Positions 1 to 50,988 of a stretch of DNA of 64,000 bases are shown here, piece after piece; positions within the stretch are counted from its first letter, which is position 1; each line of letters begins with the position of its first letter. This DNA comes from an uncultured Gammaproteobacteria bacterium. Lineage in GTDB: Bacteria > Patescibacteriota > Microgenomatia > Levybacterales > UBA12049. Made by a program: the position numbers and the translations under genes. The notes beneath the pieces were generated by a model, which saw only the letters and a program-made list of their open reading frames with translations, was not told the DNA's origin and ran no database searches. The stretch covers positions 52,060-116,059 of the forward strand of contig CAYQEE010000005.1 of assembly GCA_964416445.1 (NCBI GenBank), given 5' to 3'.

Positions 1-30
1 AAAAATTTCCAGCTCCGTGGAGAAGAATTT

Positions 31-2208
31 TTGAATATGATGCGAAAATTCTATGGTTCGCAAACATTAACCTTCAATAGTAGATTGCTTCGGTTTATGA
101 GCTTACTTTCAACAGACCCTGATGAAGTAGAAGAATTTTTAACCAGTGGCAGACGACAAAATAGAATTGGTGGTACTTTAGGAAGAGGAATGAGTGGTGC
201 ATTGCTTCTTCATTACCATCTTGACCAGCTTGGTCATCTTGGCGAAGCAGACTTAGTGCATGGCAAAAGTAACTTTATTGATGGATTAGGGGCGAATGTC
301 CATGAAAATGGAAAAATGGGAGGAAGACGAGCCTTCTTTCAGTCATTATTATACCAATCAATTGCTAAAAGCAAATATGCGTCAGCAATTATAGAAAATG
401 GACAACTAACAAATACGATGAGAAAAAAAGGTGAAGCGATATCCGAAGAACGAGATAGGCAGGGACGTCTCCTCGCAGAATTTGAAAAATTATTGAATAC
501 CTCAAAGGATTTAGACGAGCGAGGAAGAGCAAGTGAGAATAGCTATTCGCACATATTTGACAATATTAAAGCTGATCTCGCAAGAGGAGAAGAATCAGTG
601 TTAGAAAATATGATTTTTTATACTACAAAAGATCTCGCTCTTGCTCAGGATTTACTCAAGCCAATTCGCTATTTATTAGATGAAAATAATCCCGATACGA
701 GAAGAATACTCGCGGCTGAACAACAAAATCCAGGTACTGAAGAATTTGCGGTGCTTGAACAAAAACTTGCCCTTAAGATGACAGAACTGTTTTTAGGTAT
801 TACGCGGAAAGATTTAAATTTCTACAATGGACCAAAAAGTAGTAATCGATCCACCAGAAATGTTGTTCTAGAAGCAATAGAAGCTTCAGTTCAGGCACAG
901 TATAACTTAAATTATACAGATGCTCGATTTGGAGCACATTTTGTCTCGTTAATGCCATCGTTTATGGGAATTGGTGCAAAAAATGATACGAATATTGACA
1001 GTACGCAATGGTGGTCAACGGTTATGCAATTTAAAGAATATCGCATAAGAAATCCTAAAAAAGTTGATGTCGGAGATCCTGAAACGTTTAATACCGTTGA
1101 ACAATTCCTTACTTTTATGGAGGCAATTGCTATACAGGTGGGAACGGAAACCACGCCAAAAAGAGATAGTGATGGGAATCTTGTCGACAAGAACGGTAAA
1201 TTGATTACCAACGATGGCCAAGTTGAGTATGAATCAAAAGCAGTTGTTGTGCCTTTTTATCGATTTGTTGAATCGCTTCGTGATAATGTTTCCCTTATCA
1301 AAACAAAAGCGAATCCGGATCAATCTGAAAAAGGACCTGATGCGAATAAAGTAGGAGATCCCGTGATCATTGATAATGGTATGAAAAATTTCGTAGAACA
1401 ACATTTGAAAGGTATGGTTGATTTAGATGGTATTATTAAAAAACATAAATTTGACTTGATGGATGTCATGAAACAAGAAGGGGGAACAGGAAAATGGGTT
1501 GAAGATTCACAAAAAGCTGATGATAACTTTTTTAAAATGCTGGGCGCATTGCGTAATGTCATCTCAAAACCGGCATTCTCAGCATATTTAAATGATAAAA
1601 ACTATACCATTCCTGTTCGCGAATTAGTCCTTGATGAAAATGGAAAATCGACAGGTAAATATCGATTTGTTAATAAAACATTAGCAGAAATGATGTTTCA
1701 TAGGAATATTCGAAATACCTTTGTTGATCAGCTTCCTGATGAAAAAGGCAAAAATACCATAGATGCAAAAGAAACATTGGTAAAACAAATGATAAAGTTT
1801 TTAGCTACCATGAGTTATGAAAGACATAAATTCGACCTGTTTGGGGGATGGACTGAAGCTGGTAGACAAAGAGAATCCAAATGGCCAACCTGGACCATTG
1901 AACGATTCCAGGCAACAGATTATTTCCTGATGTACAATTTATTAGCAGAAGCAAGGCAATATAAGGATAAATATGGAGAAGGATTAGAGGACTTTATCGA
2001 AACTTACCATCAAACAAGAGGGTACTTTAGTAAAGCCGATATTGCAGACACGCATAAGGTTTCTCATACCGAATATTGGGGATCAGGCTTTCTTGGTCTT
2101 GGAGGAATGGAAGCGAGTTCAATGTGGACTGGTCTCCTTGGTGTTATTTGGTTAGCAATGTTCGAACAATTTTCCAAAGGACTTGGAGAAGCAACAAAAT
2201 TTAAATAA
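31..2208 (+). CDS. Large hypothetical protein (725 aa), possibly tail-anchored; the 5' end may extend beyond the window
   Basis: Uninterrupted 2.2 kb ORF. The track start is a TTG, and the frame stays open back to position 1. Charged, helix-rich composition. The C-terminal residues WTGLLGVIWLAMF form a single hydrophobic segment. No catalytic motif recognised. Confidence 0.5.
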   Translation: MNMMRKFYGSQTLTFNSRLLRFMSLLSTDPDEVEEFLTSGRRQNRIGGTLGRGMSGALLLHYHLDQLGHLGEADLVHGKSNFIDGLGANVHENGKMGGRRAFFQSLLYQSIAKSKYASAIIENGQLTNTMRKKGEAISEERDRQGRLLAEFEKLLNTSKDLDERGRASENSYSHIFDNIKADLARGEESVLENMIFYTTKDLALAQDLLKPIRYLLDENNPDTRRILAAEQQNPGTEEFAVLEQKLALKMTELFLGITRKDLNFYNGPKSSNRSTRNVVLEAIEASVQAQYNLNYTDARFGAHFVSLMPSFMGIGAKNDTNIDSTQWWSTVMQFKEYRIRNPKKVDVGDPETFNTVEQFLTFMEAIAIQVGTETTPKRDSDGNLVDKNGKLITNDGQVEYESKAVVVPFYRFVESLRDNVSLIKTKANPDQSEKGPDANKVGDPVIIDNGMKNFVEQHLKGMVDLDGIIKKHKFDLMDVMKQEGGTGKWVEDSQKADDNFFKMLGALRNVISKPAFSAYLNDKNYTIPVRELVLDENGKSTGKYRFVNKTLAEMMFHRNIRNTFVDQLPDEKGKNTIDAKETLVKQMIKFLATMSYERHKFDLFGGWTEAGRQRESKWPTWTIERFQATDYFLMYNLLAEARQYKDKYGEGLEDFIETYHQTRGYFSKADIADTHKVSHTEYWGSGFLGLGGMEASSMWTGLLGVIWLAMFEQFSKGLGEATKFK

Positions 2209-2235
2209 AGTTCAAATGTCTCTCAAGGGTAGCTT

Positions 2236-3849
2236 CTACGATCTTGGCGTTGATTCTTGTGTCATTGCATTATAGAGTCTATCTCGAGGACTACCTGCTC
2301 TCCCTAAGAGAACTCTTCTCCCAATACCACGGCTGGTTCCTTGATAAGGATTCTCTCTTTGCCATGCTTTTGCTCCAAACTTTCGTAATCCAGCTCCAGC
2401 AGCCCCTGCCCCAACAGCAAGGGATTGTCCAACTGCTGATCCTAACGCTCCTTTGGATTTCAATGCTTCTTTGACTGCATCAGGAATTTTCGGCAACATA
2501 AGAATTGCACAGAGAGCAATAATAGGTCCGACACTGATTCCCGGCACCATGGGTAAAATAAACGATGAAGTATTTGCTCCAATTTTTTGAGCAATTGCTC
2601 CTGCAATATACAAATAGCAGAGAGATATAGGGAAGATAAGCAAATTAGCCAACATATCCCTAAAGAATCCTCCTACTCCGCCACCAGGTGAACCGGGAAG
2701 ACCACCAAGGAGAATTCGAAGCGGACTTAAAATGACGTTAAACAAGATCGTAATATAGGCATTAATCAAAGACATCCAGAAGCGGAAGAGCGCGACAAGT
2801 ACTGCAACGGCAATGGCAAAGAATACAATCAGTTGAATTAATGAATCAATGCCCCATGGAAAAGGACCATTTGGGCATCCATTTCCTGAAATGGCACCAA
2901 TGAAGCAAATAATACCTGAAATGATATTCAATGGAATCAGTAAAATCAAACTGATTAACCCGGTAACAATACGTAGTGGGCCAAGAAACGGACCAACAGT
3001 TCCTGCAACTGTCTGCGCACCGGTCATGATGGATGCACCGACACCTCCCGAAGAGCTAAAGGCGAGATTTGCCGCATCAAATGGTGTTGTTGTACTAAAT
3101 AAAGAATTTGTCACATTTGTTCCTCCAACGGCAGCGGCAATAACATTTAAAAAGACAAAGGTGAGAACATAGGTAAGGTCAATGAGTAAACCTGCAATTG
3201 CGTAGGAAAAAGTGATCAAAAGAAGCCCAACGATGATTTTTGGTATTTGGTTCTGAAGTGTCATAACTGTTCGGGGATCGATCTTGATTCGAAGCATAAT
3301 ACCTAACCCAACAACAATAAAAACAACAACAATCATTAAATAGGCAATATTTCGAAACCCAATCCAAATTGACAAAATAGGATCTAACCCTTGTGCACCT
3401 ATTCCTACTTCATTTGGATTTGTCGCAGCATACGTGCGAGAGACTCCGTTAGCATGGAAATTTTGTGAAAGATAGTTAATATATGAATTCGTATGGATTG
3501 GAATTGCGTATGTTAATGCTAAGGTGTGTACCATGAATCCTAAAACGCCTCCACTTGGTTGTGTGTAAGAAATGTTGCCCGTTTTCACATCATATCCAAG
3601 GCACTGTCCGTTTGGTTTAGTTGGGTCGGTTCCTGTAAGAATACAAAGTCCTTCAGAAAGAATACTTAACAGAAGTCCATGGGTTACTGTTTGAAGATTG
3701 TGTGGTACATCAGCGTTTGTGTTTTGAAAAAGAAAATTGTTTCCAGAAGTTACTTGAGCATGTGCGGGTTGTGTAAATGATGTGAGAAGAAAAATATTTG
3801 AAGAAAAGAGAATGACAAGAAAAGTAAAAATGGACAATACTTTCTTCAT
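2236..3849 (-). CDS. Secreted polytopic membrane protein, TrbL/VirB6-like (tentative)
   Basis: The likely start is MKKVLSIFTFLVILFSS at 3849 (a signal peptide ending AHAQ), rather than the upstream Met of the track. After the signal come ~170 aa of extracytoplasmic domain, then 6 or more hydrophobic helices, then a Gly/Ala-rich C-terminal tail (GALGSAVGQSLAVGAGAAGAGL). This architecture matches VirB6/TrbL-family proteins, though no sequence motif proves it. Confidence 0.35.
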   Translation of the reverse strand: MKKVLSIFTFLVILFSSNIFLLTSFTQPAHAQVTSGNNFLFQNTNADVPHNLQTVTHGLLLSILSEGLCILTGTDPTKPNGQCLGYDVKTGNISYTQPSGGVLGFMVHTLALTYAIPIHTNSYINYLSQNFHANGVSRTYAATNPNEVGIGAQGLDPILSIWIGFRNIAYLMIVVVFIVVGLGIMLRIKIDPRTVMTLQNQIPKIIVGLLLITFSYAIAGLLIDLTYVLTFVFLNVIAAAVGGTNVTNSLFSTTTPFDAANLAFSSSGGVGASIMTGAQTVAGTVGPFLGPLRIVTGLISLILLIPLNIISGIICFIGAISGNGCPNGPFPWGIDSLIQLIVFFAIAVAVLVALFRFWMSLINAYITILFNVILSPLRILLGGLPGSPGGGVGGFFRDMLANLLIFPISLCYLYIAGAIAQKIGANTSSFILPMVPGISVGPIIALCAILMLPKIPDAVKEALKSKGALGSAVGQSLAVGAGAAGAGLRKFGAKAWQRENPYQGTSRGIGRRVLLGRAGSPRDRLYNAMTQESTPRS

Positions 3850-3937
3850 GTTAAATCTAGTGTGAAGTTTTTCTGAAAAAATGTCAAGGGCCCCAATGAA
3901 CAATACAGCAAGATGGTTACCCATAAAGAATATTTAT

Positions 3938-4936
3938 TTAAACGGCATTTTTTAGTGGAGAATGTTTCTGAAATGGAAACTGAGAAGGAGAGGGCCTTTG
4001 TGGACTGATCATATGATATTGATGCATAATTTTTTGTAATTGGCCAGATTGAGATAAAGTGACCAAAAGAGTAATAACCGAGGCAACGATAATGATTCCC
4101 ATGATCCAACCGATAGCAGATATAATATATATCCACGTCAATGATGTCTTCTCAACCATGTTTGTGGCAGCTGTTACTTGTTTATATAACAGAACAAAAT
4201 AAACTGATATAAACCAACCGAACAAAATACTGATAATAAAAGATAGAATTCCCACTATCACATGTAACCCCATTTGATCTTGAGGAATAATTCGAGGAAG
4301 AAACTGGATTGCTGTTTGCAGTAAACAAATGAGCAAAATTCTGACAAACACTTCTCCAAAGTGAGTTTTAACCATATGGTAACTATTTCGCAATGCAGTA
4401 AACCCTCGATGATTTCCCAGAATTACTTCGTAAGGGGTAAACACAAAAAAAATTGCAAAAAGGATACCTGGAAGAATCAGTAAGAAATATCCACCAAGGG
4501 TGACTAAACCAGTAAGAACATCAATGATAAAAAAGGGAAGAAGAAAAGGATAACTTTTTTTAATTGCTTCAAATACTGGTATCCTCCCCGAGGAATCAAT
4601 AACAATTATGGTAGCTATTTGTGAGATCAGTCCTATGATGATGATGGATATTGTTAACAGAATTATATCAACAATAACAAGAGGTATAAGTGCTGATATA
4701 TTATGAAACAGAAGCAGATAAATGAGTGTAAGAAGTAACAAGATGACACTAACGCACACAAAAGAAACAATACTCAAAATACTAATGACAAAAAGGGGGA
4801 GTAACGATTCTTTGCAAGTGCGGTATGTTTCTTCAAAAAGTGAACGTAATGGCGGTATTTGATGCTTTTTATATTGGCTATTATGCTCAGATTTCTTTTG
4901 CTCTTCCATATGTTCTTCCCCCCTCAAGTATTTCAA
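3938..4936 (-). CDS. Integral membrane protein, function unknown
   Basis: 332-aa ORF. Hydrophilic N-terminus, then at least 7 strongly hydrophobic helices. No recognisable motif. Confidence 0.5.
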   Translation of the reverse strand: MKYLRGEEHMEEQKKSEHNSQYKKHQIPPLRSLFEETYRTCKESLLPLFVISILSIVSFVCVSVILLLLTLIYLLLFHNISALIPLVIVDIILLTISIIIIGLISQIATIIVIDSSGRIPVFEAIKKSYPFLLPFFIIDVLTGLVTLGGYFLLILPGILFAIFFVFTPYEVILGNHRGFTALRNSYHMVKTHFGEVFVRILLICLLQTAIQFLPRIIPQDQMGLHVIVGILSFIISILFGWFISVYFVLLYKQVTAATNMVEKTSLTWIYIISAIGWIMGIIIVASVITLLVTLSQSGQLQKIMHQYHMISPQRPSPSQFPFQKHSPLKNAV

Positions 4937-4993
4937 TAAAATTACAGTAAGTCAAATGGTTCTGTGAGCAGGAATATTCTCTTCATATCTTTG

Positions 4994-5080
4994 CGGAGGG
5001 AGAGGGATTTGAACCCTCGATACCCTTGCGAGTATACAGCTTTTCCAAAGCTGCGCACTAGGCCACTATGCGACCCCTCC
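4994..5080 (-). tRNA. tRNA-Ser (anticodon GGA)
   Basis: The reverse complement folds as a class II tRNA. Acceptor GGAGGGG pairs with CCCTCC(T). Anticodon stem cagct/agctg with loop ttGGAaa. Long variable arm. T-arm gaggGTTCAAAtccctc. CCA is not encoded. Confidence 0.85.
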
Positions 5081-5102
5081 TTGTATATCATTATACCGAA
5101 CT

Positions 5103-5531
5103 TTATGTGAAAGTAGGTAAAATTGTTTTAGCTTCTTCCCAAACTTGTTTATCAGAATCAAACGTTAATCGTTTTGCAACTTCAGTCGGTGGTAACCATT
5201 CCACCTTTTCCATTTCCCAATCATGTTGAGAAATATCCCCACTTTGATAGCGCATGATAAAGTAATAGACTGTCTTTTTTCGCTTCACCCCATCCATGTG
5301 ATACCAATAGGTAACGGGATGTAAAGCGGTAAGTATTTTCCCTTTGACTCCTGTTTCTTCCTCAACTTCCCGTAACGCTGTTTCTTCTTTACTTTCACCT
5401 TTTACCTTATCTCCTATAAATCCTTTCGGGAATACCCATCCATGATGTTGCGAGTGCTGGCTAACAAGGATTTCTATTCCTTGTGCGCCAGTTTTAAAAA
5501 CTACCCCGCCTGCTGAAAATTCTTGCTTCAT
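5103..5531 (-). CDS. NUDIX hydrolase
   Basis: Nudix box GESKEETALREVEEETGV (GX5EX7REUXEEXGU) at the expected position. 142 aa. Confidence 0.85.
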   Translation of the reverse strand: MKQEFSAGGVVFKTGAQGIEILVSQHSQHHGWVFPKGFIGDKVKGESKEETALREVEEETGVKGKILTALHPVTYWYHMDGVKRKKTVYYFIMRYQSGDISQHDWEMEKVEWLPPTEVAKRLTFDSDKQVWEEAKTILPTFT

Positions 5532-5675
5532 ACGATTCTTGTTGTAAAGTTATTGTTAGCTCTCTATCAAGCATGATATTCAAATGAGAGGTACACTACT
5601 GTCGACCATTATACTGTATTTTATACCTATTTGCAGACATTCCAAAATACAGTATACTCTCAATAACAACAAGGT

Positions 5676-6017
5676 ATGGATATACAAAAGGAAATAGAGG
5701 ATATCAAGAAAGAGCTTGTTGAGCTTATTATCTCACATTTAAAAGCAAATAAGATGGAAGCACAACAAGCGCAAAAAATGGCAAACGATTTTCTTGGCAT
5801 ATTGCCAGTAAAAGATCAAAAGGATTTATTAGAAAAATTGAAAAAATTAGGGGACAGTTACCAAGAAATGCGGAGCTTGTATGTGAAAGAATTAGCTAAA
5901 TTTAATGAAGAACAACGTGAGCATGCGCTCTTAAAAATGCGAAACTCGATAGCTGAAGGAAAAATTGAAGATGCTATTAATGTTGCGAAACAATTGCAAG
6001 TGAATAGTGTAGTATAA
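5676..6017 (+). CDS. Small coiled-coil hypothetical protein
   Basis: 113-aa ORF rich in K/E heptad-like sequence. Ends 5 nt before the next ORF, so it is probably co-transcribed with 6023..8215. Confidence 0.45.
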   Translation: MDIQKEIEDIKKELVELIISHLKANKMEAQQAQKMANDFLGILPVKDQKDLLEKLKKLGDSYQEMRSLYVKELAKFNEEQREHALLKMRNSIAEGKIEDAINVAKQLQVNSVV

Positions 6018-6022
6018 AGACT

Positions 6023-8215
6023 ATGACTGAAATAAAAATAGCACCGAATGGACAAACTGTGGCAGCAAAACCTGAATTAAAAGTGGCGGCAGTCAGGATT
6101 GCTCGTGCAATTGAGCCAGATAGAAAAACGAAACCGCCAGTAAAAGATGCAAATCATCCTTATTACAAAGAAGGATTATTTGGACCAAAATCTCAAGAGG
6201 ATATTGATGCTGCATTCATTTATATAAACCGAACAAATGCACAAGCTGAGTACTATAGAGCTCGTTCGTCTTCTGATAAAGCAGCTGATATTACTCGCGC
6301 AAATGCATTAAGTCATGAGGCTGCTGATGTGGAAGATTTATTCCTTATGAAATATGATGCAGTACGAACTGATTTAGAAACAATACTTAATAGTATTACT
6401 GATCCGGACTATGACATACAATTACAAAAACGAGTTGATGCGAAAATGGAGTACTTTAAATCCCATGCTGAGGCATTAGAACAACGTGCGCAAAACCAAA
6501 GTACCCGCTTAGCCCAGGAAATGGAGTTTTTTACCGAGAGTGAGGCAAATGCTGCAATTCTTTTTTTAGAATCCGTTCCGCTTACTCCGCAGGATGTAGG
6601 CTATGATGATCCATTGAAATATGAACAAGCGTGCGTGCTTGCTGCGAAAGATTTTGCCCAATTACCTTTGGATGATCAAGGTCTTACGGACGATGCGAGA
6701 AGAGCTAAAGTTAGAACTCTTGCTGAACAAATTTACGCGAACGCCAACATAAATCATATGACACCTTTTGAAATGAGAGGAAAACAAAATGTGAATGCGC
6801 AAATAGCATCAAATAATGCTCGAATTGATGCTGTCTATTTAGCCGTCGCAAGTGAACTGAGTGCAAATCCTACAAAATATGCGGAAGCAGTACAGGAACA
6901 AAAATTTGACGTTTCTGAAGCTGAAATAGATCAAGAAATACAACGAGTTGCAGCAAGTGCTGGAGTAACCCAAGCGTCAAATTCATATGAATATCAAAAT
7001 ATCGTTAATAAAGTGTATGCCAGTCATTTGCGCGGAAAAGCAGAATCATTGTTAACTATTCCTCAAGCCTATCTTGATGCAAACGGAGATCCTGAAGCGT
7101 ATCGATTGAAATATCACGAAATGACCTCCCAAGCAACAGCACCTGTTCCTGCAGAAGCTATCATTGAAGCGGTTCATCAAGATGCTGTCGCAAAAGATCA
7201 GGAACTTATTCAAAAAGGAATTGAAAAGGCATATAACGATGTTTATATTGCTCAAGCGATACCATTACTTGACCAAGCGAAATTGATAGAAGCACTTGAT
7301 AATGGAAAGTTTGACGTGAGTGGTGCCTTTCTTCAGCAAGAAGTCTCTGATAAGCTGAATGCAGATGGGATAGATCCTGCTGATGCGGTGAAAGTTGCTA
7401 AAGTGAAACAAGGCGTCTATGCTCGTCATTTACGTGCAAAGACCGAGTCATCCTTGCACGTTCCGCAAGATGTTGATCAAAATGCGTATATATTAAAATG
7501 GAAAGATTTATATACACGGAATAAAGGTACAATTCCTTCAGAAGCTGAAGTGAGAGCGGCGTTAGGTATTGATCAAAAAGTTGCAGATGCGCTTAATAAG
7601 ACACAAGATCATGTAAAACTTACCTTTGAGGGTAAATACGCAAGCCAGTTACTTGATAATGAAGAAGTAAAAAGATATGTTGAAGCTTCAGTAAAACTGA
7701 TGGACGAAATGGCTGCAATGCATAATGATCCTGCGTATAGCGAAAATGATGATGTACTTCGGGAAAAGTTAGCTCCATTGCAACTGATGAAACAGTTATT
7801 GGAGGCAGAACAGCAAAAAAGAACTCTTACTCCTCAAGAGCAAGCTCAGTTAGATCATGCGACTAAAGAATTATCGTTAGGCAATGAGTTTCTTGCCAAA
7901 GATGATAAGGTAAAAAGAGAGGAACGAGCGCAATTGCAAACACAATTGAGACAAAAGGATTCAATTTTCCAGTCATATATTAATCATATTGGAACATTGC
8001 GAGGGATGACCCCAGAGTTTGCTCAAAAAATGAGAACTGCTATGGAGGATAAATGGTATCGGGGTAATAGTGAAAATTGGGATGAGCTGATGAGACAAAA
8101 AGAAACACAGAACTGGCTTTGGCTCTTAGGTATGTTAGGTGCAGTAATCATGAATGCTTCGGGAACTATTATGCTACAGGGTATCGGTCAAGCTGCTTCA
8201 GTCGGTCGACAATAA
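6023..8215 (+). CDS. Large hypothetical protein (730 aa) with a C-terminal transmembrane anchor
   Basis: Long, helix-rich, acidic ORF. The last ~30 residues (NWLWLLGMLGAVIMNASGTIMLQGIGQAA) form one hydrophobic helix. No recognisable enzymatic motif. Confidence 0.55.
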   Translation: MTEIKIAPNGQTVAAKPELKVAAVRIARAIEPDRKTKPPVKDANHPYYKEGLFGPKSQEDIDAAFIYINRTNAQAEYYRARSSSDKAADITRANALSHEAADVEDLFLMKYDAVRTDLETILNSITDPDYDIQLQKRVDAKMEYFKSHAEALEQRAQNQSTRLAQEMEFFTESEANAAILFLESVPLTPQDVGYDDPLKYEQACVLAAKDFAQLPLDDQGLTDDARRAKVRTLAEQIYANANINHMTPFEMRGKQNVNAQIASNNARIDAVYLAVASELSANPTKYAEAVQEQKFDVSEAEIDQEIQRVAASAGVTQASNSYEYQNIVNKVYASHLRGKAESLLTIPQAYLDANGDPEAYRLKYHEMTSQATAPVPAEAIIEAVHQDAVAKDQELIQKGIEKAYNDVYIAQAIPLLDQAKLIEALDNGKFDVSGAFLQQEVSDKLNADGIDPADAVKVAKVKQGVYARHLRAKTESSLHVPQDVDQNAYILKWKDLYTRNKGTIPSEAEVRAALGIDQKVADALNKTQDHVKLTFEGKYASQLLDNEEVKRYVEASVKLMDEMAAMHNDPAYSENDDVLREKLAPLQLMKQLLEAEQQKRTLTPQEQAQLDHATKELSLGNEFLAKDDKVKREERAQLQTQLRQKDSIFQSYINHIGTLRGMTPEFAQKMRTAMEDKWYRGNSENWDELMRQKETQNWLWLLGMLGAVIMNASGTIMLQGIGQAASVGRQ

Positions 8216-8299
8216 TTTTCTTGTAAGCTTTCTATCATCTCAATATCAAGCATAGTCAGTTGGTTTATGACATGATTCCTGCGTTAAGGAGGGATAGAT

Positions 8300-8935
8300 A
8301 TGGTAGAAGTACAGGGTCTTCCAGGAATACAACAGGTTGCTTATCACGTAGCGCGTGATGAAGTAGTTCCTCGTGCATTGGGGTCTTCTAGTGAAAACCC
8401 TTTTTCTAAAATTGAAGGCAAGGCACAATTGATGAAAGATGAACCTATCTTTTCCTCTCAAAACTTGGAGCAAAATAAAACAAATTCTTTTAATACAAAA
8501 GAGATTGATGTGCATGAACAAAATAAACAGGATACCTTGCCAAAGACTCATATTCCAAGGGATCTTGTCATCTTTAAAAAAGATCAGCAGATAAAAAACG
8601 ATCACCGAGTTGAGGAAAGAGTAAACATGAGTTCTCGTAAGAGAGATTTATCTGAATCTATGGAAAAGCGAAAGGGTTTATCAACACAGTCAGGAGTACA
8701 AGAAACACTGACAAACGTACTCCCTCAATTAGAAAAAACATTTGGAAAAAAAGTTCATACGATCACTGCTGATGCCGATTTCCTGTCGCTTCTTGTTGGT
8801 GAGACAAGAAGGGTAAATAATCAAGATGAGGAACATAATATTGTCTCATTATTTTTCAGATTACTTGTTTGGCTAATACAAATGGTATTAACGCAAGGTT
8901 TTTGGAAAGGAGAGAAGCTCGTAACACAAACGTAA
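8300..8935 (+). CDS. Hypothetical protein (low confidence ORF)
   Basis: 211-aa ORF of low-complexity charged sequence. It fills the gap between the 730-aa gene and tRNA-Arg. No motif. Confidence 0.3.
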   Translation: MVEVQGLPGIQQVAYHVARDEVVPRALGSSSENPFSKIEGKAQLMKDEPIFSSQNLEQNKTNSFNTKEIDVHEQNKQDTLPKTHIPRDLVIFKKDQQIKNDHRVEERVNMSSRKRDLSESMEKRKGLSTQSGVQETLTNVLPQLEKTFGKKVHTITADADFLSLLVGETRRVNNQDEEHNIVSLFFRLLVWLIQMVLTQGFWKGEKLVTQT

Positions 8936-8947
8936 TATTGAAATTTG

Positions 8948-9020
8948 CGCACTCGAGAGGATTCGAACCTCCAACCACAAGATCCGCAATCTTGCGCTCT
9001 ATCCATTAAGCTACGAGTGC
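8948..9020 (-). tRNA. tRNA-Arg (anticodon read as GCG)
   Basis: Reverse complement is GCACTCG...CGAGTGC-G with canonical arms. Anticodon stem caaga/tcttg with loop ttGCGga. T-loop TTCGAAT. 73 nt, no encoded CCA. Confidence 0.8.
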
Positions 9021-9053
9021 TAATATTCTGAGCGTATTGTAACTGACTTTTTC

Positions 9054-9644
9054 CTATGAAGCAACTTTGTGGACTTTTTTTACTTTTTCAACTGGTTCGA
9101 GAGGAAAATTTTTTGTCATCCAAGTACTTGCCTTATCAACAAATGTCGGTGGGATATATTCCCTGAAAGGTAGATAAGGTAACAATGCTTTTTTAATGCT
9201 TTCAATGTTAACCTCACCATTAGGAGTCAGAATAATCTCACCGGGAAAAATTGTCCGAGTTCTGACGACAATAACTTCCTGATTGTTTTGATGATCAATA
9301 AAAAAATCATATAATTCTTGCCACAATGAATAATGGTCTTCAACAAAAATACCCTCACTACTAATTCGAAATTTAAAATTATGGGGAGGAACAGCAGAGA
9401 ACGTAAATGCTAAAAATACGAAAGACAGAACGACAAGCATTTCGAGGTACATTGAAAATAAAAAAAGTATTACTTCAACGAAGAACATGATAATGAGTAC
9501 CGTTGCATAATACTCCCTTGTACGTTTTTTAAATGGTCTTCCTGGTGCTTCCCAGGTAAGAATCGTCTTTACTTCATTGAAATTCGCATGAATTTCTTGA
9601 AGATCTTTACTACCCAGTTCTTGACTTGTCTGTTGCTTGGTCAT
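9054..9644 (-). CDS. Membrane protein, function unknown
   Basis: 196 aa. Two adjacent hydrophobic helices (YYATVLIIMFFVEVILFLFSMYLEMLVVLSFVFLAF) followed by a soluble domain. Confidence 0.5.
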   Translation of the reverse strand: MTKQQTSQELGSKDLQEIHANFNEVKTILTWEAPGRPFKKRTREYYATVLIIMFFVEVILFLFSMYLEMLVVLSFVFLAFTFSAVPPHNFKFRISSEGIFVEDHYSLWQELYDFFIDHQNNQEVIVVRTRTIFPGEIILTPNGEVNIESIKKALLPYLPFREYIPPTFVDKASTWMTKNFPLEPVEKVKKVHKVAS

Positions 9645-9749: not shown

Positions 9750-10484
9750 ATGACAAAAAAGCTTATTATGCTAACAGCATACGATTATCCAACAGCCAAG
9801 ATACTTGATGAGATTGGTATTGATTATATTCTGGTCGGTGATAGTGTGGGGATGGTAGTTTATGGTTATCCAGACACAAAATCAGTTACTATGACAGATA
9901 TGGTGAGACATGTTCAAGCTGTTGCTCGAGGAGCAAAACATACACCCATTATTGCTGACTTGCCAATCAATACCTACAATACTGTTTCTGATGCGCTACT
10001 CAATGCAAAAAAACTTATCCAAGCAGGTGCATATGCGGTTAAAGTTGAAGGAAGGAAAGACGAAATAATTCGTGCCTTACAAGCAGACAAGATACCCGTC
10101 GTTGGACATGTAGGGTTATTACCACAAACGGCTCTCCATTATAAAGTTCAAGGGAGAGATGTTCAATCTGCAGAACAGATTTATGAAGATGCAAAAGTAC
10201 TTGACGGCTTCCATATGCCAGTTCTTATCCTTGAATGTATTCCTCAGGAATTGGCAAAGAAAATCACGAGAGATATTAATACACCAACGATAGGTATTGG
10301 TGCAGGGAAATATTGTGATGGGCAAGTACTTGTGCTTCATGATGTCCTTGGCCTTTCTGATTTTCAAGGGAAATTTGTTCGGCAATATTTTGATGCAAAA
10401 AAACAATTCAAACAAGCGCTGCTTAATTTTAAACATGATGTTTTTACTGAAAAGTTTCCCGAAGAGAGAGAGAGTTTTCAATGA
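9750..10484 (+). CDS. panB: 3-methyl-2-oxobutanoate hydroxymethyltransferase (ketopantoate hydroxymethyltransferase)
   Basis: MTKKLIMLTAYDYPTAKILDEIGIDYILVGDSVGMVVYGYPDTKSVTMTDMVRH..ADLPINTY..KVEG..IPVVGHVGLLPQT is the PanB signature. The in-frame ATG at 9750 was chosen over the upstream track start. Confidence 0.85.
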   Translation: MTKKLIMLTAYDYPTAKILDEIGIDYILVGDSVGMVVYGYPDTKSVTMTDMVRHVQAVARGAKHTPIIADLPINTYNTVSDALLNAKKLIQAGAYAVKVEGRKDEIIRALQADKIPVVGHVGLLPQTALHYKVQGRDVQSAEQIYEDAKVLDGFHMPVLILECIPQELAKKITRDINTPTIGIGAGKYCDGQVLVLHDVLGLSDFQGKFVRQYFDAKKQFKQALLNFKHDVFTEKFPEERESFQ

Positions 10485-11218
10485 TAGATAGTCATCATCC
10501 ACGTGCTGAATCATTACAAATCAGAGATAAAATTGTCCACGGCGTATCATTGGGTATTACATCGCTCCATGGGCTTGTTGCACAGGGAAGAGGAGAAGCG
10601 TTTGATTATCTTATCGGAGAAAAAACACAGAGCTTTGCTCAAGAATCTCTCCGTGCTGCTTCAGCACTTCTCTTGCTTGCAGAATACCCAGTATTATCAG
10701 TGAATGGGAACACTGCTGCATTATGTGCTGCGGAATATGGAAAACTAGGAAAAGTACTTGATTGCCCAATAGAGATAAATTTATTTCATCGTACACTTGC
10801 AAGAGAAAAGGCAATTCAAACATATTTATTAGAACAAGGAGCAAATAATATTGTTGGAGTGGGAGATGATGCAAGTGAAGTAATTACGGGTATTGCGAGT
10901 CCTCGAAAGTTTGTCAGTCATTATGGCATTAAGAAAGCAGATGTTATATTTGTTCCATTGGAGGATGGAGATCGCGCTCAAGCATTAATCAATCAGAATA
11001 AAAAAGTGATTACCATTGATTTAAATCCACTATCCCGCACTGCACAGCAGGCAACCATTACTATTGTTGATAATATTGTTCGTGCGCTGCCTTTGCTCAT
11101 TTCTATAACAGAACAATTACAGAGAAGTCAGAAATCTGAATTACAAAAAATCATAGATGAATATGATAATAAAAAAATACTTTCTATTGCACTCAAACAA
11201 ATGAAAGAACAAATTTAG
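10481..11218 (+). CDS. Possible archaeal-type phosphopantothenate synthetase (COG1701/DUF137-like); otherwise hypothetical
   Basis: 245 aa. Its start overlaps the panB stop (ATGA), which suggests operon coupling. Size and position beside panB fit the archaeal PoK/PPS route to CoA. I cannot confirm family membership by motif. Confidence 0.35.
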   Translation: MIDSHHPRAESLQIRDKIVHGVSLGITSLHGLVAQGRGEAFDYLIGEKTQSFAQESLRAASALLLLAEYPVLSVNGNTAALCAAEYGKLGKVLDCPIEINLFHRTLAREKAIQTYLLEQGANNIVGVGDDASEVITGIASPRKFVSHYGIKKADVIFVPLEDGDRAQALINQNKKVITIDLNPLSRTAQQATITIVDNIVRALPLLISITEQLQRSQKSELQKIIDEYDNKKILSIALKQMKEQI

Positions 11219-37094: not shown

Positions 37095-39548
37095 ATGACA
37101 CAAGTAATACAAACAAAGCAAACCAACTTTGCAGGTACCTTACGAGAGAAAGTATTTTTAGATAGATATGCTTTAAAAGGTAAAGATGGTGAATTATTAG
37201 AACATACTCCTGAAGAAATGTGGGCTCGTGTTGCAAGAGGGATAGCAAAGAACGAAAAACTTGCGGTTCGCAATAAATGGGAAAAAGAATTTTATCGCGT
37301 TATGGAAGATTTCAAGTTTGTTCCTGGAGGAAGAATTAACTCGGGAGCAGGTACTGGATATCAAGTAACCTATTTTAATTGTTTTGTCATACCCTCACCA
37401 AAAGATTCTCGAGAAGGTATTCTTGAATCACTGAAGCAGTTAGTAGAAATTCAATCACGTTCGGGAGGAGTTGGATTAAACTTATCATCCCTTCGTCCTC
37501 GAGGTGCTCGCGTACGTAAAGTAAATGGAACGTCATCAGGTCCAGTAACCTGGGCTGGATTATTCTCATATGCAACACATGATGTGGTGCAACAAGGCGG
37601 TACGCGGAGAGGTGCAACTATGTTAATGCTTTGGGATTGGCATCCTGATATCGAAGAATTTATTACCGTAAAACAAGATTTGTCAAAAATTAATGGTGCT
37701 AACCTTTCGGTTTGTATTTCTGATGCCTTTATGGAAGCAGTAAAAAAAGATGCAGACTGGGATTTAGTTTATCCCGATTTGGACGATCCTCACTATGATG
37801 AAAAATGGAGTGGAGAAATTGATCAATGGAGAGCGATGGGTGGTAAAGTAAAAGTATATAAAACAATCAAAGCACGTGAATTGTGGGATTTGATTTGTAC
37901 AGCAGCGTGGAGATCAGCAGAACCTGGTCTTCATTTCTTGGAACGATCGAATAAACGTTCTAATACATGGTATTTTGAGCGTCTTGTCGCGACAAACCCT
38001 TGTGGTGAACAGCCGTTGGGGCCATGGGCAGTATGTAATTTAGGTGCAATGAACTTGTCAGCATATGTCAAAGATGCAGATCTTGCAAAAGGACAAGCTG
38101 GTTGGTTTGATTATGATTCTTTTGGAAAAGATGTTCGGGTCGCAATGCGTTTTCTTGATAATGTTATTGATCAAACATATTATTTCTTTAAAGAAAATGA
38201 AAAATGTGCAAAAGAAATTCGAAGAACCGGTCTTGGTATCATGGGACTTGGCGATACCCTCATTAAAATGCACTTGAAGTATGGAGGAGAAGATTCTGTG
38301 CCTGTCCTTGAAAAGATCTTTAAAACGCTTCGAGATAATGCCTATGAAGCCTCTTCTGATTTGGCAAAAGAAAAAGGAGCTTTCCCACAATTTGATAAAG
38401 AGAAATATTTGGAAGGATATCATATTAAGGCACTTTCTCCACAGCTTCGCAAAAAAATTATAACAAATGGCATTCGCAATGCAGTTCTCTTAACTATTGC
38501 TCCTACGGGAACGACCTCATTGGTATCAGGAGTGACATCAGGTATTGAACCTGTCTATGAATTTACCTTTATTCGGCGAGATCGGACAGGTGAGCATACG
38601 ATTTATCATCCATTATATGAACAATGGGAAGCTGCACATCCTGAAGAGGATCGACCAGAGTATTTTGTAAGTGCCAATGATTTAACACCACTCGAACATG
38701 CTCGTGTGCAAGCAGTAGCTCAGGAATATATTGATTCTTCTATTTCAAAAACGGTCAATGGGCCGAACAAGGACTCCATTGATGATGTGAAGAACTTATA
38801 CATGATGGCGTATGATATGGGATTAAAGGGAGTTACCTATATGCGTGATGGGTCTCGTCAAGGTGTATTAGAGCGGGTTGAGGAAAAGAAAGAGAAAAAA
38901 GAAGAAGTTCCAGCCATTCAACATCAGCCAGCTCTTCCAATTATGCCAATTATTTCTCGTCCACAACGTATAGAAGGTGCAACGTATGAAGCGAAAACTC
39001 CTGTTGGAGATACGTTTATCACTATTAACCATACTGATAATAAAGAACCATTTGAAGTATTTATTACGATCGGAAAATCCGGCTCAGACGTTGGTGCTAT
39101 GGCTGAAGCAATTGGTAGACTTATTTCTCTTAATTTACGTTCCAATAGTATGCTTCCACCTCGAGAGCGAGTAAGACAAATTGTTGCACAATTAACGGGG
39201 ATTGGTGGTGCACGAAGTGTTGGATTTGGGCCAAACAGAGTTCGATCTCTTCCTGATGCAATTGCAAAGGTGCTTTCACAACATTTTGATTTCTCTGTCA
39301 ACGGGAAAGTCGTTGATAAGACTGTGCTTCAACAATTTAACAATACCAATGGACATGCGGCGTCAGATAATGGTAGTAAGGCTTCATCTCATTCAGAAAA
39401 TGCAAAACAACTGCTTTTAGAAGGTGGACAAGAAACACTTCACGCGAGTACCAATATGTTTGATATTTGTCCAGAATGTGGTGTGAATAGCTTTGCTTAT
39501 GAAGAAGGTTGCAAAAAATGTTATAGTTGCGGTTATTCAGAGTGCTAG
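37095..39548 (+). CDS. nrdJ: Ribonucleotide reductase, class II (adenosylcobalamin-dependent)
   Basis: Active-site region VATNPCGEQPLGPWAVCNLGAMNL. The length and order fit monomeric class II RNR. A C-terminal Zn-ribbon CPECG...CKKCYSCGYSEC is present. Confidence 0.85.
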   Translation: MTQVIQTKQTNFAGTLREKVFLDRYALKGKDGELLEHTPEEMWARVARGIAKNEKLAVRNKWEKEFYRVMEDFKFVPGGRINSGAGTGYQVTYFNCFVIPSPKDSREGILESLKQLVEIQSRSGGVGLNLSSLRPRGARVRKVNGTSSGPVTWAGLFSYATHDVVQQGGTRRGATMLMLWDWHPDIEEFITVKQDLSKINGANLSVCISDAFMEAVKKDADWDLVYPDLDDPHYDEKWSGEIDQWRAMGGKVKVYKTIKARELWDLICTAAWRSAEPGLHFLERSNKRSNTWYFERLVATNPCGEQPLGPWAVCNLGAMNLSAYVKDADLAKGQAGWFDYDSFGKDVRVAMRFLDNVIDQTYYFFKENEKCAKEIRRTGLGIMGLGDTLIKMHLKYGGEDSVPVLEKIFKTLRDNAYEASSDLAKEKGAFPQFDKEKYLEGYHIKALSPQLRKKIITNGIRNAVLLTIAPTGTTSLVSGVTSGIEPVYEFTFIRRDRTGEHTIYHPLYEQWEAAHPEEDRPEYFVSANDLTPLEHARVQAVAQEYIDSSISKTVNGPNKDSIDDVKNLYMMAYDMGLKGVTYMRDGSRQGVLERVEEKKEKKEEVPAIQHQPALPIMPIISRPQRIEGATYEAKTPVGDTFITINHTDNKEPFEVFITIGKSGSDVGAMAEAIGRLISLNLRSNSMLPPRERVRQIVAQLTGIGGARSVGFGPNRVRSLPDAIAKVLSQHFDFSVNGKVVDKTVLQQFNNTNGHAASDNGSKASSHSENAKQLLLEGGQETLHASTNMFDICPECGVNSFAYEEGCKKCYSCGYSEC

Positions 39549-47840: not shown

Positions 47841-48431
47841 ATGAATCATATGGGTACAACAACAAACCAGCAAGATCAATCGAATCAAACATCGCAAGGG
47901 AATACTATTGTTGAATTTCCTGATTTCAATACTGTTGCTAAAACACCAACGACACATCCCCTTGGACCAATGCCAGTAGTAAAAACTCCAACTCCAACTC
48001 CAACTCCAACTCCAACTCCAACTCCAACTCCAACTCCAACTAGTCAACCTACGAGCAGTTCAATTCAGAAGGAACTCGAACCAATGCCATCATTGATAGC
48101 AAAACCTGACATAATACACGAAACTGAACATGTTGTTGAGCTTGTTCCAGAAGTGAAAGCAGCAGGAGTGGAAGCTGTTTCAACTATTCCACAGTTAACA
48201 TTAGAAGAAAAAAAGATTGGTGTAGAATTAGCAAAGGAAGCAGCATTAGAGGAAAAGAAATTAGAGCCTGATTTAAAAGCACCAATATCAAAAATGGAGG
48301 CAGAAAAAATAACGAAAGGACAATTACTCTTTAAGGATACTTCAAATCCCATGTTGTGGCTAGCGATGCTTCTTTTGAGACAGATTCAAATTTTAACTAG
48401 ACAAAAACAGTCTAAAGAGAAAAAAATATGA
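47841..48431 (+). CDS. (TP)n-repeat protein with a charged helical middle and hydrophobic C-terminal segment
   Basis: 196 aa. [21 protein letters not shown] is encoded by a perfect (ACTCCA)n array. Then an E/K-rich region. Then a C-terminal LWLAMLLLRQIQIL. Its stop overlaps the next start (ATATGA). Confidence 0.55.
   Translation: MNHMGTTTNQQDQSNQTSQGNTIVEFPDFNTVAKTPTTHPLGPMPVVKTPTPTPTPTPTPTPTPTPTSQPTSSSIQKELEPMPSLIAKPDIIHETEHVVELVPEVKAAGVEAVSTIPQLTLEEKKIGVELAKEAALEEKKLEPDLKAPISKMEAEKITKGQLLFKDTSNPMLWLAMLLLRQIQILTRQKQSKEKKI
47985..48035 (+). repeat. Hexanucleotide microsatellite (ACTCCA)x8.5 encoding (TP)n
   Basis: A perfect tandem array read directly from the sequence. In-frame repeat length changes would alter the linker length without a frameshift. 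Confidence 0.9.
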
Positions 48432-50849: not shown

Positions 50850-50922
50850 GGGCCAGTAGTTCAGCGGCTAGAACATCTATCTTATACATAGAATGTCGAA
50901 GGTTCGAGTCCTCCCTGGCCCA
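50850..50922 (+). tRNA. tRNA-Ile with anticodon UAU (reads AUA)
   Basis: Acceptor GGGCCAG/CTGGCCC-A. D-stem gttc/gaac. Anticodon stem tctat/ataga with loop cTTATAc (U33, A37). T-loop TTCGAGT. 73 nt. A TACAAT -10-like box lies upstream. Confidence 0.8.
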
Positions 50923-50988
50923 CATGTCAAATTATTTTATTGCAATTATTGAGAAATATATCTGCTCATTTTGTTATACTAATTACCA

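Follow-up and report, generated by a model that had tools for sequence, protein, structure and literature searches.

A probable T4SS locus flank of a Levybacteria-related bacterium and its two hypervariable proteins with C-terminal hydrophobic segments

At one end of the 64,000-nucleotide stretch of DNA analysed here (the window), two large genes lie on either side of a gene for a polytopic membrane protein. What do these genes belong to? The initial annotation had seen two similar tail-anchored proteins of about 730 residues placed symmetrically around a TrbL-like protein and forming a dispersed apparatus together with a TraG-like ATPase encoded far away. Our comparison points to another arrangement, in which window positions 1-9644 are very probably the right-hand flank of a chromosomal Patescibacteria-type T4SS locus (monoderm, MPF_FATA-like). 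The organism carrying it is an ultrasmall, Levybacteria-related CPR bacterium. Patescibacteria T4SS are already known; by our best reading, the undescribed part is two predicted tail-anchored proteins linked to the T4SS, here named A and B. The complete interpretation, with a T4SS flank, a diverged VirB6 and A and B as cognate T4SS partners, is plausible as a whole and falls just short of probable.

Gene order at the window edge

We compared 80 related loci from one clade, in which shared ancestry alone may keep gene order. The order in the relatives is o9054, NUDIX, the VirB6-like gene, A, a regulator, four to six pilins, in some loci a B-type gene and its partner s, and then PrgI, a TrsD-like gene and VirB4. 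A, s and the B-type genes are on the strand opposite to the core operon. The VirB6-like gene adjoins T4SS pilins, PrgI and VirB4 in about 60 of the 80 loci, and the downstream neighbours in Levybacterial relatives are T4SS_pilin (PF18895, four to six copies), PrgI (PF12666) and a VirB4-like ATPase. A and the regulator/pilin genes are divergently transcribed from a shared region of 130 bp.

Because the window ends inside A, the regulator, pilins, PrgI and VirB4 should fall just beyond base 1. For this genome, we infer their position directly left of base 1 from 3.4 kb of extra sequence and, for the rest, from synteny. The contig L086, which comes from the same genome and is 100% identical to window positions 1-300, shows A (1294 aa) followed by a Trans_reg_C regulator and next, where the pilins are expected, by an ORF with a signal peptide. 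The earlier idea of a dispersed secretion apparatus is thus half retained: the region does appear to belong to a secretion apparatus, but the core of that apparatus is contiguous to the left of base 1, as judged partly by synteny.

The TraG-like ATPase that had been reported some 45 kb away is present. It is a VirD4/TraG-like coupling-protein ATPase (48428-50806, plus strand; TrwB_AAD_bind at 32.6 bits against a GA of 20.5, with DUF87 and TraG-D_C), with an N-terminal TM region and the Walker A motif GKTGTGKS at residue 395. Its gene lies about 45 kb from the T4SS cluster, which fits the published Patescibacteria pattern, where T4CP genes usually lie at a distance from virB4 (PMC12102498).

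The closest described counterpart that we considered is SEML1_0006-0019 of Southlakia epibionticum (Wang et al. 2023, PMC10633639; Quinonero-Coronel et al. 2025, PMC12102498). That cluster is likewise chromosomal and of monoderm type, and it includes PrgI/VirB3, VirB4, a TrsD-like gene and an array of VirB2-like pilins. Further likenesses to the Southlakia and Patescibacteria T4SS are the coupling protein encoded far off, the lack of a relaxase nearby and the large uncharacterised proteins within the cluster. Unlike that of Southlakia, the Levybacterial cluster includes a wHTH regulator, its VirB6-like protein is short (about 560 aa) and very diverged whereas the Southlakia protein is 'extended' (about 1090 aa), and it carries the hypervariable C-tail-anchored classes A and s+B, which are undescribed in PMC10633639 and PMC12102498.

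The VirB6-like protein and its neighbours

The polytopic membrane protein (2236-3924, minus strand) is VirB6/TrbL-like by family, model and synteny. Its translation probably starts at the ATG at 3849 (MKKVLSIF...), since the family consensus begins with MK. The signal-like N-terminus and Gly-rich tail noted initially are borne out, and we found at least six hydrophobic helices and a tail that is Gly/Ala-rich and basic. The family has more than 640 homologues; its GTDB species loci number at least 580 and are mostly from Levybacteria.

The VirB6/TrbL assignment was less direct. The initial annotation had staked it on a TrbL/VirB6 HMM hit, and searches of Pfam, TrbL included, and NCBIfam gave no direct TrbL/VirB6 match for the window protein; taken to the letter, this counts against the claim. 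Support came by other routes, synteny among them. One family member, P0122, shares 34% identity with the window protein (E 9e-69) and scores above the Pfam TrbL (PF04610) threshold, at 31.1 bits against a GA of 25.9 over profile positions 55-209; it is the single match in 37 aligned members and in the roughly 120 members listed. The AF2 model of the polytopic protein (pLDDT 72.6) had TrwI/VirB6 chains as its top five PDB matches in Foldseek, at non-significant E-values of 0.8-2.4, and aligning the family with single sequences of TrwI or PrgH by hhalign gave nothing significant either. VirB6 has been described as 'scarce' in Microgenomatia, 'suggesting extreme sequence divergence' (PMC12102498). 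We regard the product of 2236-3924(-) as probably a strongly diverged VirB6/TrbL-type T4SS channel subunit of this lineage. Like VirB6/TrbL proteins (PF04610) such as TrwI of R388 (PDB 7O3V, 8RT9, 8RTD) and F TraG, it is a polytopic helical inner-membrane protein of a T4SS cluster. In contrast to them, our best reading adds to the TM part (at least six segments) an N-terminal signal peptide, a Cys-containing extracytoplasmic domain of about 120 aa and a Gly-rich basic cytoplasmic tail.

The three smaller genes noted initially between the VirB6-like gene and B are confirmed. The second multi-TM protein (3938-4936, minus strand; called start 4909) is weakly UPF0259/YciC-like, with an NCBIfam YciC match at E 8e-6, below the cut-off, and a precomputed PF06790 match. 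None of the 80 related loci holds a homologue of it, and its gene is a lineage-specific insertion outside the conserved cluster. It is followed by a tRNA-Ser (GGA; 4993-5080, minus strand; ARAGORN) and a NUDIX hydrolase gene (5103-5531, minus strand; PF00293, E 1e-19), whose homologues adjoin the VirB6-like gene in about 45 loci. Beyond B, o9054 (9054-9644, minus strand) encodes a 196-aa two-TM protein (TM region 43-88) that is weakly DUF5673-like; it is a conserved neighbour at the cluster edge, with 41 homologues at E<=1e-59 on the same flank of related loci. Housekeeping genes are also seen in synteny with the cluster, namely NUDIX, o9054 and, in some loci, ribonucleotide reductase.

Genes A, s and B

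The window holds the 3' part of A (1-2208, plus strand; codons 560-1294). ORF 31-2208 remains open as far as window base 1, and the full protein of 1294 aa is encoded on the Logan contigs (L003/L086:2811-6695, minus strand), the window carrying its last 735 residues (560-1294). The similar lengths of 725 and 730 aa that had been reported for the two large proteins are hence an artefact of the window edge. A has no Pfam, NCBIfam, PHROG or PDB match, and its family is hypervariable. Its position is constant: an ORF of 770-1730 aa is convergent with the VirB6-like gene (tail-to-tail), often with overlapping stops, in 80 of 80 loci, and the 37 members of an iterated HMM of A all occupy this place. 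Of the 81 positional equivalents, 79 are joined into a single component by phmmer links. Where a genome has two VirB6-like genes, it also has two VirB6-like/A pairs (L004/L005, L046/L057). The N-terminal 35 aa of A are conserved (hhalign prob 90%, E 1.6e-6), and the C-terminal 60 aa or so align weakly across subfamilies (E 1.4e-4, prob 52%).

Gene B (6023-8215, plus strand) encodes a hypervariable, predicted tail-anchored protein of 730 aa and is a sequence orphan. It matches only itself in protein sets of 5.8 billion and 1.84 billion and has no Pfam or PDB match. A tandem duplication inside B (6875-7639; aa 285-404 and 420-539) was detected by BLASTP of its halves (33% identity, E 2e-15). The large proteins had been described as helix-rich; for B this holds in an all-helix single-sequence AF2 model, which is of low confidence (pLDDT 40). 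Positional equivalents of B were found in 21-24 loci and are mostly mutual singletons. Immediately upstream lies its partner s (5676-6017, plus strand), a conserved, all-helical, charged protein of 113 aa whose stop is 5 nt upstream of the B ATG. It has no Pfam match and just a weak TPR-like C-terminal motif. Nearly all 28 matches of the s family are followed by a same-strand protein of 300-730 aa, most of which have a C-terminal hydrophobic segment. The s+B-type pair has two sites, one next to the VirB6-like gene and the other after the pilin array and before PrgI, and B-type modules occur in only about 25-30 of the 80 loci, with 10-kb flanks scanned.

The C-terminal segments were tested on the Kyte-Doolittle scale with a 19-residue window (KD19), with the usual TM threshold of 1.6 and a relaxed one of 1.2. 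A ends in the Gly-rich helix FLGLGGMEASSMWTGLLGVIWLAMFEQF and the basic tail SKGLGEATKFK (2089-2205), and B in NWLWLLGMLGAVIMNASGTIML and its tail (8111-8212). The single C-terminal hydrophobic segment claimed for each is thus real in both proteins but weak: B reaches 1.61 at residues 699-718, barely above the usual threshold, and A has a maximum of 1.25-1.49. Scanning the whole of B gave no second hydrophobic segment and no signal peptide. As the A helix is below threshold and partly amphipathic in the A subfamily, its membrane insertion is not assured. A similar segment closes nearly all A positional equivalents, and A- and B-type proteins in general have no signal peptide; most of them finish with a single moderately hydrophobic helix and a basic tail. 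Among the proteins at the A and B positions in related loci, 56-62% (KD>=1.6) or 81-82% (KD>=1.2) have a hydrophobic segment at the C-terminus only; for the remaining ORFs of 300 aa or more the share is 1-2%, which places the segment far beyond chance.

A and B do not form the matched pair that had been proposed, since they show no similarity (BLASTP best E 0.56; no cross matches between the A and B families). The flanking arrangement is not conserved either, and in relatives the s+B module frequently lies on the far side of the cluster. Two similar proteins of about 730 aa placed symmetrically around a TrbL-like protein, in a dispersed apparatus with the TraG-like ATPase, are very improbable: A is really 1294 aa long, the two sequences are unrelated and the apparatus core lies in one block directly beyond the window edge, which refutes the symmetry and the dispersal. 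What does agree with such a scheme is that the middle protein looks VirB6-like, that a VirD4-like ATPase is encoded 45 kb off and that both large proteins end in a hydrophobic segment. Common to A and B is their turnover. The median pairwise bit-score ratio is 0.00 for A and 0.016 for the B-type proteins, compared with 0.27 for the VirB6-like protein, 0.38 for PrgI, 0.48 for the regulator and 0.61 for NUDIX.

Possible roles of A and B

We consider it reasonably likely that A and B are functionally tied to the T4SS. A link by gene order alone would make them membrane-tethered cytoplasmic proteins unrelated to secretion (e.g. cytoskeletal, division or envelope scaffolds), with a T4SS proximity simply inherited in Levybacteria. 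All loci come from a single clade, so the conserved order is not independent evidence, NUDIX, o9054 and some ribonucleotide reductase genes keep the same company, and neither A nor B nor s has a recognised T4SS-related domain. This explanation is nonetheless quite improbable to us: the s+B-type module uses two alternative sites, each of them within the T4SS cluster or at its edge, one being between pilins and PrgI; A stays with the VirB6-like gene, often with overlapping stops and with joint duplication, though other flanks differ; and A diverges from the regulator and pilins across the 130-bp region.

In the mechanism that we propose for a T4SS-linked role, A and B would be made in the cytoplasm and would reach the membrane at the T4SS post-translationally, by means of their C-terminal helix. 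A may be the cognate, trans-encoded partner of the VirB6-like subunit, contacting it at the cytoplasmic face. It could have a function like that of the large hydrophilic domains that are fused to VirB6 in the 'extended' class described in PMC12857230; an example is Southlakia SEML1_0013, with 1088 aa, a TrbL/VirB6 structural match and an ARM-repeat domain (Wang 2023 Table S2, PMC10633639). In contrast to extended VirB6 (e.g. F TraG), the hydrophilic partner A is encoded separately and convergently and is not fused. The s+B pair might be a second machine-associated module. That A and B are resident accessory partners rather than cargo is a tentative preference, possible and still short of probable. 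Such extreme turnover is unusual for a cytoplasmic machine subunit and suits cargo or host-facing proteins better, and the A/B-type genes are on the strand opposite to the core operon.

A and B could instead be T4SS cargo of the 'transmembrane effector' or translocator type, exported onto or into the membrane of the host bacterium, which we judge rather unlikely. They would then be recognised through the C-terminal hydrophobic helix and basic tail, possibly via an inner-membrane intermediate, and the 113-aa protein would act as a dedicated chaperone or adaptor shielding the hydrophobic tail of B. Both proteins are more variable than every neighbour, like the pilin arrays thought to be host-adapting (PMC12102498), and the termini of A are conserved around a variable body. 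With no Sec signal and one moderately hydrophobic segment near the C-terminus followed by a basic tail, they share features of T4SS transmembrane effectors, which have a C-terminal signal, moderate hydrophobicity and 1-2 TMS, the more hydrophobic ones using an inner-membrane intermediate (PMC12981334). C-terminal targeting information, rapid evolution and encoding beside the machine are likewise known from T4SS effectors and large variable substrates. Helicobacter CagA with CagF exemplifies a large variable dedicated T4SS substrate with its chaperone. The small, conserved, helical s with its weak TPR-like motif, immediately upstream of the variable client B, resembles this arrangement. The CPR T4SS, essential and without relaxases, has been proposed to export proteins, and the opposite strand of the A/B genes also suits cargo. 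On the other side, the universal fixed position of A and its co-duplication with the VirB6-like gene are more typical of a machine component, the conserved N-terminal motif is not among known T4SS signals, searches of A and B revealed neither an effector nor a toxin domain, and the T4CP homologue is non-essential in Southlakia (PMC12102498). A and B would also differ from known T4SS effectors in that their host would be another prokaryote.

The 113-aa protein s is possibly an adaptor or chaperone. The overall build of A and B recalls the E. coli TAMPs (PMC6794478), which have one hydrophobic segment at the extreme C-terminus with a short tail, a bulk predicted to be cytoplasmic and no signal peptide. 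The A/B-type proteins differ from the E. coli TAMPs in their hypervariability and their much greater size (730-1700 aa), and the A segment is partly amphipathic and below the usual TM hydrophobicity threshold.

Gene order of a probable T4SS locus at the left end of the window

In the 80 related loci fetched with 10-kb flanks, ORFs were called and then labelled by phmmer and HMMs. The canonical gene order starts with a two-TM protein, a NUDIX gene and the forward VirB6-like gene, followed by a reverse-strand large ORF (the A-type gene) and a forward wHTH regulator. After the regulator come four to six T4SS pilins (PF18895), PrgI (VirB3-like), a 220-aa protein and a VirB4-like ATPase, all in the forward direction. 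The regulator and pilins were found in about 60 of the 80 loci, PrgI in 30 and VirB4 in 13, and the decrease from pilins to VirB4 is due to the 10-kb limit of the flanks. Regulator, pilins, PrgI and VirB4 are all absent from the 64-kb window, because the window, which is read in the opposite orientation, begins inside gene A (1-2208, plus strand).

The initial annotation had taken the ORF at 31-2208 as a 725-aa protein. Its frame is free of stop codons back to base 1, and the protein has 1294 residues on two Logan contigs, with residues 560-1294 inside the window. One of these contigs, L086, is 100% identical to window positions 1-300 and runs 3.4 kb further left. It carries the remainder of A, then 130 bp of intergenic sequence between divergent genes and a 448-aa Trans_reg_C regulator. 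After the regulator, an ORF opening with a signal peptide occupies the position of the first gene of the pilin array. These 3.4 kb are this genome's own sequence to the left of the window, and they cover only the regulator and this first ORF at the pilin position. The gene order in L086 and the synteny of the relatives indicate a T4SS locus whose genes lie together just left of base 1, with the window starting in its flank, rather than the dispersed apparatus proposed initially. Synteny thus shows the left end of the window to be a predicted T4SS flank.

The ORF positions, the tRNA-Ser(GGA) gene (4993-5080, minus strand) and the NUDIX gene (5103-5531, minus strand) were confirmed as originally placed. 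The NUDIX gene and the two-TM protein (9054-9644, minus strand; weakly DUF5673-like) are kept at the border of the T4SS cluster in about 40-48 related loci, with a bit-score ratio of about 0.6. In other Levybacteria the NUDIX and VirB6-like genes directly adjoin; this lineage alone has a UPF0259/YciC-like multi-TM gene and the tRNA-Ser(GGA) (together 3938-5080) between them.

Recurrent ORFs of ~800 aa upstream of the VirB6-like gene were considered as coupling proteins and rejected, as they are class II ribonucleotide reductases (RNRs). In some Levybacteria (L013, L031, L040, L042-L044, L048, L050-L052, L066 and L077) such an RNR recurs upstream of the VirB6-like gene, at a distance of about 2-8 kb. 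The RNR of the window (37095-39548) is 33 kb away from the T4SS cluster.

The polytopic VirB6-like protein

The polytopic protein encoded at 2236-3924 (minus strand) had been described as TrbL/VirB6-like from its architecture. A direct comparison with TrbL (PF04610) did not bear this out: the protein has no match in Pfam or NCBIfam, even at E≤1, and none among PHROGs or PDB sequences. It has more than 640 homologues, and GTDB species representatives encode the family at 580 loci, nearly every one of which bears the label Levybacteria/Levyibacteriota or 'Patescibacteria group'. Typical Levybacteria T4SS loci (L011, L013, L014, L016-L019 and others) are found in many GTDB representative MAGs from binchicken/SRP co-assemblies whose titles read 'uncultured Gammaproteobacteria bacterium', and these record titles are evidently wrong.

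One family member, P0122, shares 34% identity with the window protein along 90% of the query (E 9e-69) and scores 31.1 bits against TrbL PF04610 (GA 25.9), with its residues 302-464 aligned to positions 55-209 of the 215-position profile. P0122 is the only one of 37 aligned members that passes this gathering threshold; the other 36 fail. Through P0122, the window protein is a putative TrbL/VirB6 homologue by transitive homology. Hydropathy segments at residues 182-484 give at least five hydrophobic helices, and an AF2 model from the 37-sequence alignment (pLDDT 72.6) has long helices through residues 181-495. The five best PDB matches of the model in Foldseek are all TrwI/VirB6 of the R388 T4SS (8rtd_L, 8rt9_F and 7o3v_H/J/G), at non-significant values (E 0.8-2.4, prob≤0.6, TM 0.16-0.40). 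The hhalign comparisons of the family with single sequences of TrwI (R388) or PrgH (pCF10) were also not significant (E 0.3-0.4), and tblastn found no match to the protein among 72,556 plasmids.

Gene context provides the strongest evidence for the putative VirB6/TrbL assignment, and context and transitive homology together show the window protein to be a predicted member of a VirB6-like family. VirB6 homologues were reported to be 'scarce' in Microgenomatia, 'suggesting extreme sequence divergence' (PMC12102498). The polytopic family, which occurs in more than 580 species, fits this gap, and it is strongly suggested as the diverged VirB6 that had been missing. Although Patescibacteria T4SSs are already described (PMC10633639, PMC12102498, PMC12857230), the literature searched gave no report that identifies the Levybacterial VirB6-like family with the diverged VirB6 of Microgenomatia. 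The same search gave no description of the universal convergent A-type gene, nor of the module that contains protein B.

The database gene call starts at 3924 (562 aa), whereas the signal peptide and the family consensus start at the ATG at 3849 (MKKVLSIF...). Because the family consensus opens at MKK, the true start is probably 3849, as the initial annotation had assumed, and the first 25 codons of the gene call are probably untranslated.

The large hypervariable proteins A and B

A convergent ORF of 770-1730 aa follows the VirB6-like gene in all 80 loci. The gap between the two genes is 27 nt in the window. In relatives the genes lie within a few bases of each other or, in many cases (L006, L007, L024, L032, L043, L047, L052, L055, L056, L065, L069 and L071), share a few bases at their stop codons. 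The transcripts of convergent genes with overlapping stop codons must overlap as antisense RNAs. No terminator-like hairpin was found between the two genes at 2206-2238. Genomes with two VirB6-like genes carry two pairs of VirB6-like and A-type genes (L004/L005, L046/L057).

An iterated HMM seeded by the 1294-aa protein recognises 37 of the A-type ORFs. The remaining ORFs are tied in by 13 pairwise phmmer matches (E 1e-16 to 1e-7), and one component holds 79 of 81. The full-length hhalign between the A family and the other positional subfamily is weak (prob 9%). The first ~35 residues, with the motif MKE..LT....FM.E, align between subfamilies at 90% probability (E 1.6e-6), and the last ~60 residues align at E 1.4e-4; fixed 130-residue windows just inside these terminal segments do not align. 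The terminal segments and the 13 phmmer links are thus what supports a putative single A-type superfamily. A-type members have no Pfam domain and no PDB sequence relative, and A has no tblastn match among the 72,556 plasmids. A word-indexed protein search with the 725-aa fragment of A returned nothing, which is not evidence of orphan status. Homologues of A exist in the fetched loci (phmmer, E 1e-83), and Logan contigs carry a gene call for its full 1294-aa form, so with long queries of ordinary composition a 'no homologues' result from that search cannot be relied on.

The initial annotation had described A and B (730 aa; 6023-8215, plus strand) as similar in length. The similar length is an artefact, since the window edge cuts A. 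Paralogy of A and B was rejected, with a best BLASTP E of 0.56 and no cross matches between the two positional families. A, B, the 113-aa protein preceding B and their relatives gave nothing significant in Pfam, NCBIfam or PHROGs. Searches against PDB, by sequence or profile, gave coiled-coil or designed-helix noise only.

B matches itself alone among 5.8 billion clustered proteins and 1.84 billion representatives, and its AF2 model without an alignment has a pLDDT of 40. Within B, residues 285-404 and 420-539 (window 6875-7234 and 7280-7639) are tandem copies of one ~120-aa segment (33% identity, E 2e-15), and this internal duplication suggests growth of B by repeat expansion of a helical module. 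The 113-aa protein (5676-6017, plus strand) is conserved, with 28 matches, and its stop codon is 5 nt upstream of B. Members of its family are almost always followed by a same-strand protein of 300-730 aa, and most of these downstream proteins end in a C-terminal hydrophobic segment, with sequences mostly unrelated to each other. The two-gene module has two alternative sites. One is the flank with the two-TM and NUDIX genes beside the VirB6-like gene, which it occupies in the window; the other separates the pilin array from PrgI. B is the local version of a module embedded in putative T4SS loci, which combines a conserved small protein with a hypervariable, predicted tail-anchored protein. Directly 3' of B, a 211-aa orphan ORF (8300-8935), which is also called as a gene on Logan contigs, has no homologues in the 80 loci; its one hydrophobic segment (residues 179-199, KD 1.8) is close to the C-terminus.

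Both A-type and B-type proteins have a single hydrophobic stretch ~10-35 residues from the C-terminus, which is charge-depleted and flanked by basic residues, with no N-terminal signal or internal hydrophobic segment. A tail-anchored protein would have a single TM within the C-terminal ~65-70 aa, no other TM and no signal peptide; the segments here were scored by a hydropathy scale alone. A hydrophobic segment at the C-terminus only is present in 56-62% (KD≥1.6) or 81-82% (KD≥1.2) of the B-type set and the A-type set outside the A subfamily, against 1-2% of other ORFs of at least 300 aa in the same loci. The tail-anchored style assigned initially to both proteins is enriched in the class. B reaches 1.61 over a 19-residue Kyte-Doolittle window (KD19) at residues 699-718 of 730 and has no other segment on this scale. 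The A subfamily proper has a less hydrophobic helix, with a median of 1.0 and a value of only 1.25-1.49 for A itself, that is Gly-rich and more amphipathic.

Median pairwise bit-score ratios place the A-type (0.00) and B-type (0.016) proteins below the 113-aa protein (0.13), the VirB6-like protein (0.27), PrgI (0.38), the regulator (0.48) and NUDIX (0.61). These ratios show the two predicted classes to be hypervariable. Gene order, in turn, shows a strict genomic coupling of A to the putative VirB6-like gene and of the two-gene module to the predicted cluster. It is improbable that this arrangement is inherited synteny without functional linkage.

A and B would be synthesised in the cytoplasm, and the C-terminal helix would bring them to the membrane post-translationally, at or near the T4SS. 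We lean slightly, and tentatively, toward A as a resident cognate partner of the VirB6-like subunit at the cytoplasmic face, because A occurs in every locus at a fixed position and is duplicated along with the VirB6-like gene, and because its termini are conserved and docking-like. A further reason comes from Saccharibacteria, whose VirB6-like protein is a ~1090-aa 'extended' form with a large helical (ARM-like) domain (PMC10633639). Extended VirB6 is a described class (PMC12857230), whereas the Levybacterial protein is short and has no such large helical domain.

The extreme sequence turnover of A and B, and their location on the opposite strand, would also suit cargo, and the main alternative is that both are substrates resembling transmembrane effectors, with the 113-aa protein as a chaperone. 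By its size, its charge and its conserved place beside variable, predicted tail-anchored proteins, the 113-aa protein is a candidate secretion chaperone or adaptor; it matches no family, and its one motif, TPR-like and C-terminal, is weak. The moderate tail hydrophobicity and basic tail are as in T4SS transmembrane effectors (PMC12981334), and the moderately hydrophobic C-terminal helix, basic tail and conserved termini are compatible with predicted T4SS substrates. Such cargo would also give the relaxase-less, essential Patescibacteria T4SS proteins to export. Set against the universal, fixed and co-duplicated position of A, we regard the cargo explanation as somewhat unlikely. Its fullest form is more doubtful, namely that this T4SS has A-type proteins and chaperoned B-type proteins as its long-sought protein cargo, which the epibiont would inject into the host envelope. 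If it were true, these would be hypervariable, C-terminally targeted transmembrane proteins, for example forming or anchoring a feeding conduit, and the rapid divergence of A and B would track host range.

The Patescibacteria T4SS is essential for epibiotic growth in the one genetically tractable species, and the present results bear on its cargo and its construction. Each of the related loci has a very large hypervariable protein tail-to-tail with the VirB6-like gene, and many add a module of the 113-aa and B type. A- and B-type proteins are candidate T4SS cargo or candidate new subunits of the machine, and both ideas can be tested, with the conserved N-terminal motif and the C-terminal helix as experimental handles. 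The interest is moderate as it stands and would be high if the cargo explanation were true.

The coupling protein and the wider window

The protein encoded at 48428-50806 has a TM region at residues 6-45, a Walker A motif (GKTGTGKS) at residue 395 and a TrwB_AAD_bind domain (PF10412, 32.6 bits, threshold 20.5), with a weak PF12696 match. With its TM anchor, P-loop and TrwB/TraG domain, it is a predicted VirD4/TraG coupling protein. Its gene lies far from the T4SS cluster, a location described as the norm in Patescibacteria (PMC12102498). A tRNA-Ile gene with anticodon UAU (50850-50923) lies immediately 3' of this VirD4-like gene.

Promoter and terminator scans gave site numbers not above those of shuffled sequence. 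The wider window is an ordinary low-GC (about 36%) chromosome of a Patescibacteria-like organism, and it also encodes two class A PBPs, NrdR, the class II RNR, MutS/MutL, SmpB and panB. Among its tRNA genes are three for tRNA-Ser and one for a short tRNA-Met of 69 nt. Next to panB, this bacterial genome encodes an archaeal-type phosphopantothenate synthetase (10481-11218; PPS_PS, E 2.5e-67). A NOX/ferric-reductase-like ORF (57637-58938), with Ferric_reduct and FAD- and NAD-binding domains, lies beside a 702-aa protein with a dockerin-like motif (55465-57573); in Southlakia, the essential envelope proteins include some with dockerin domains.
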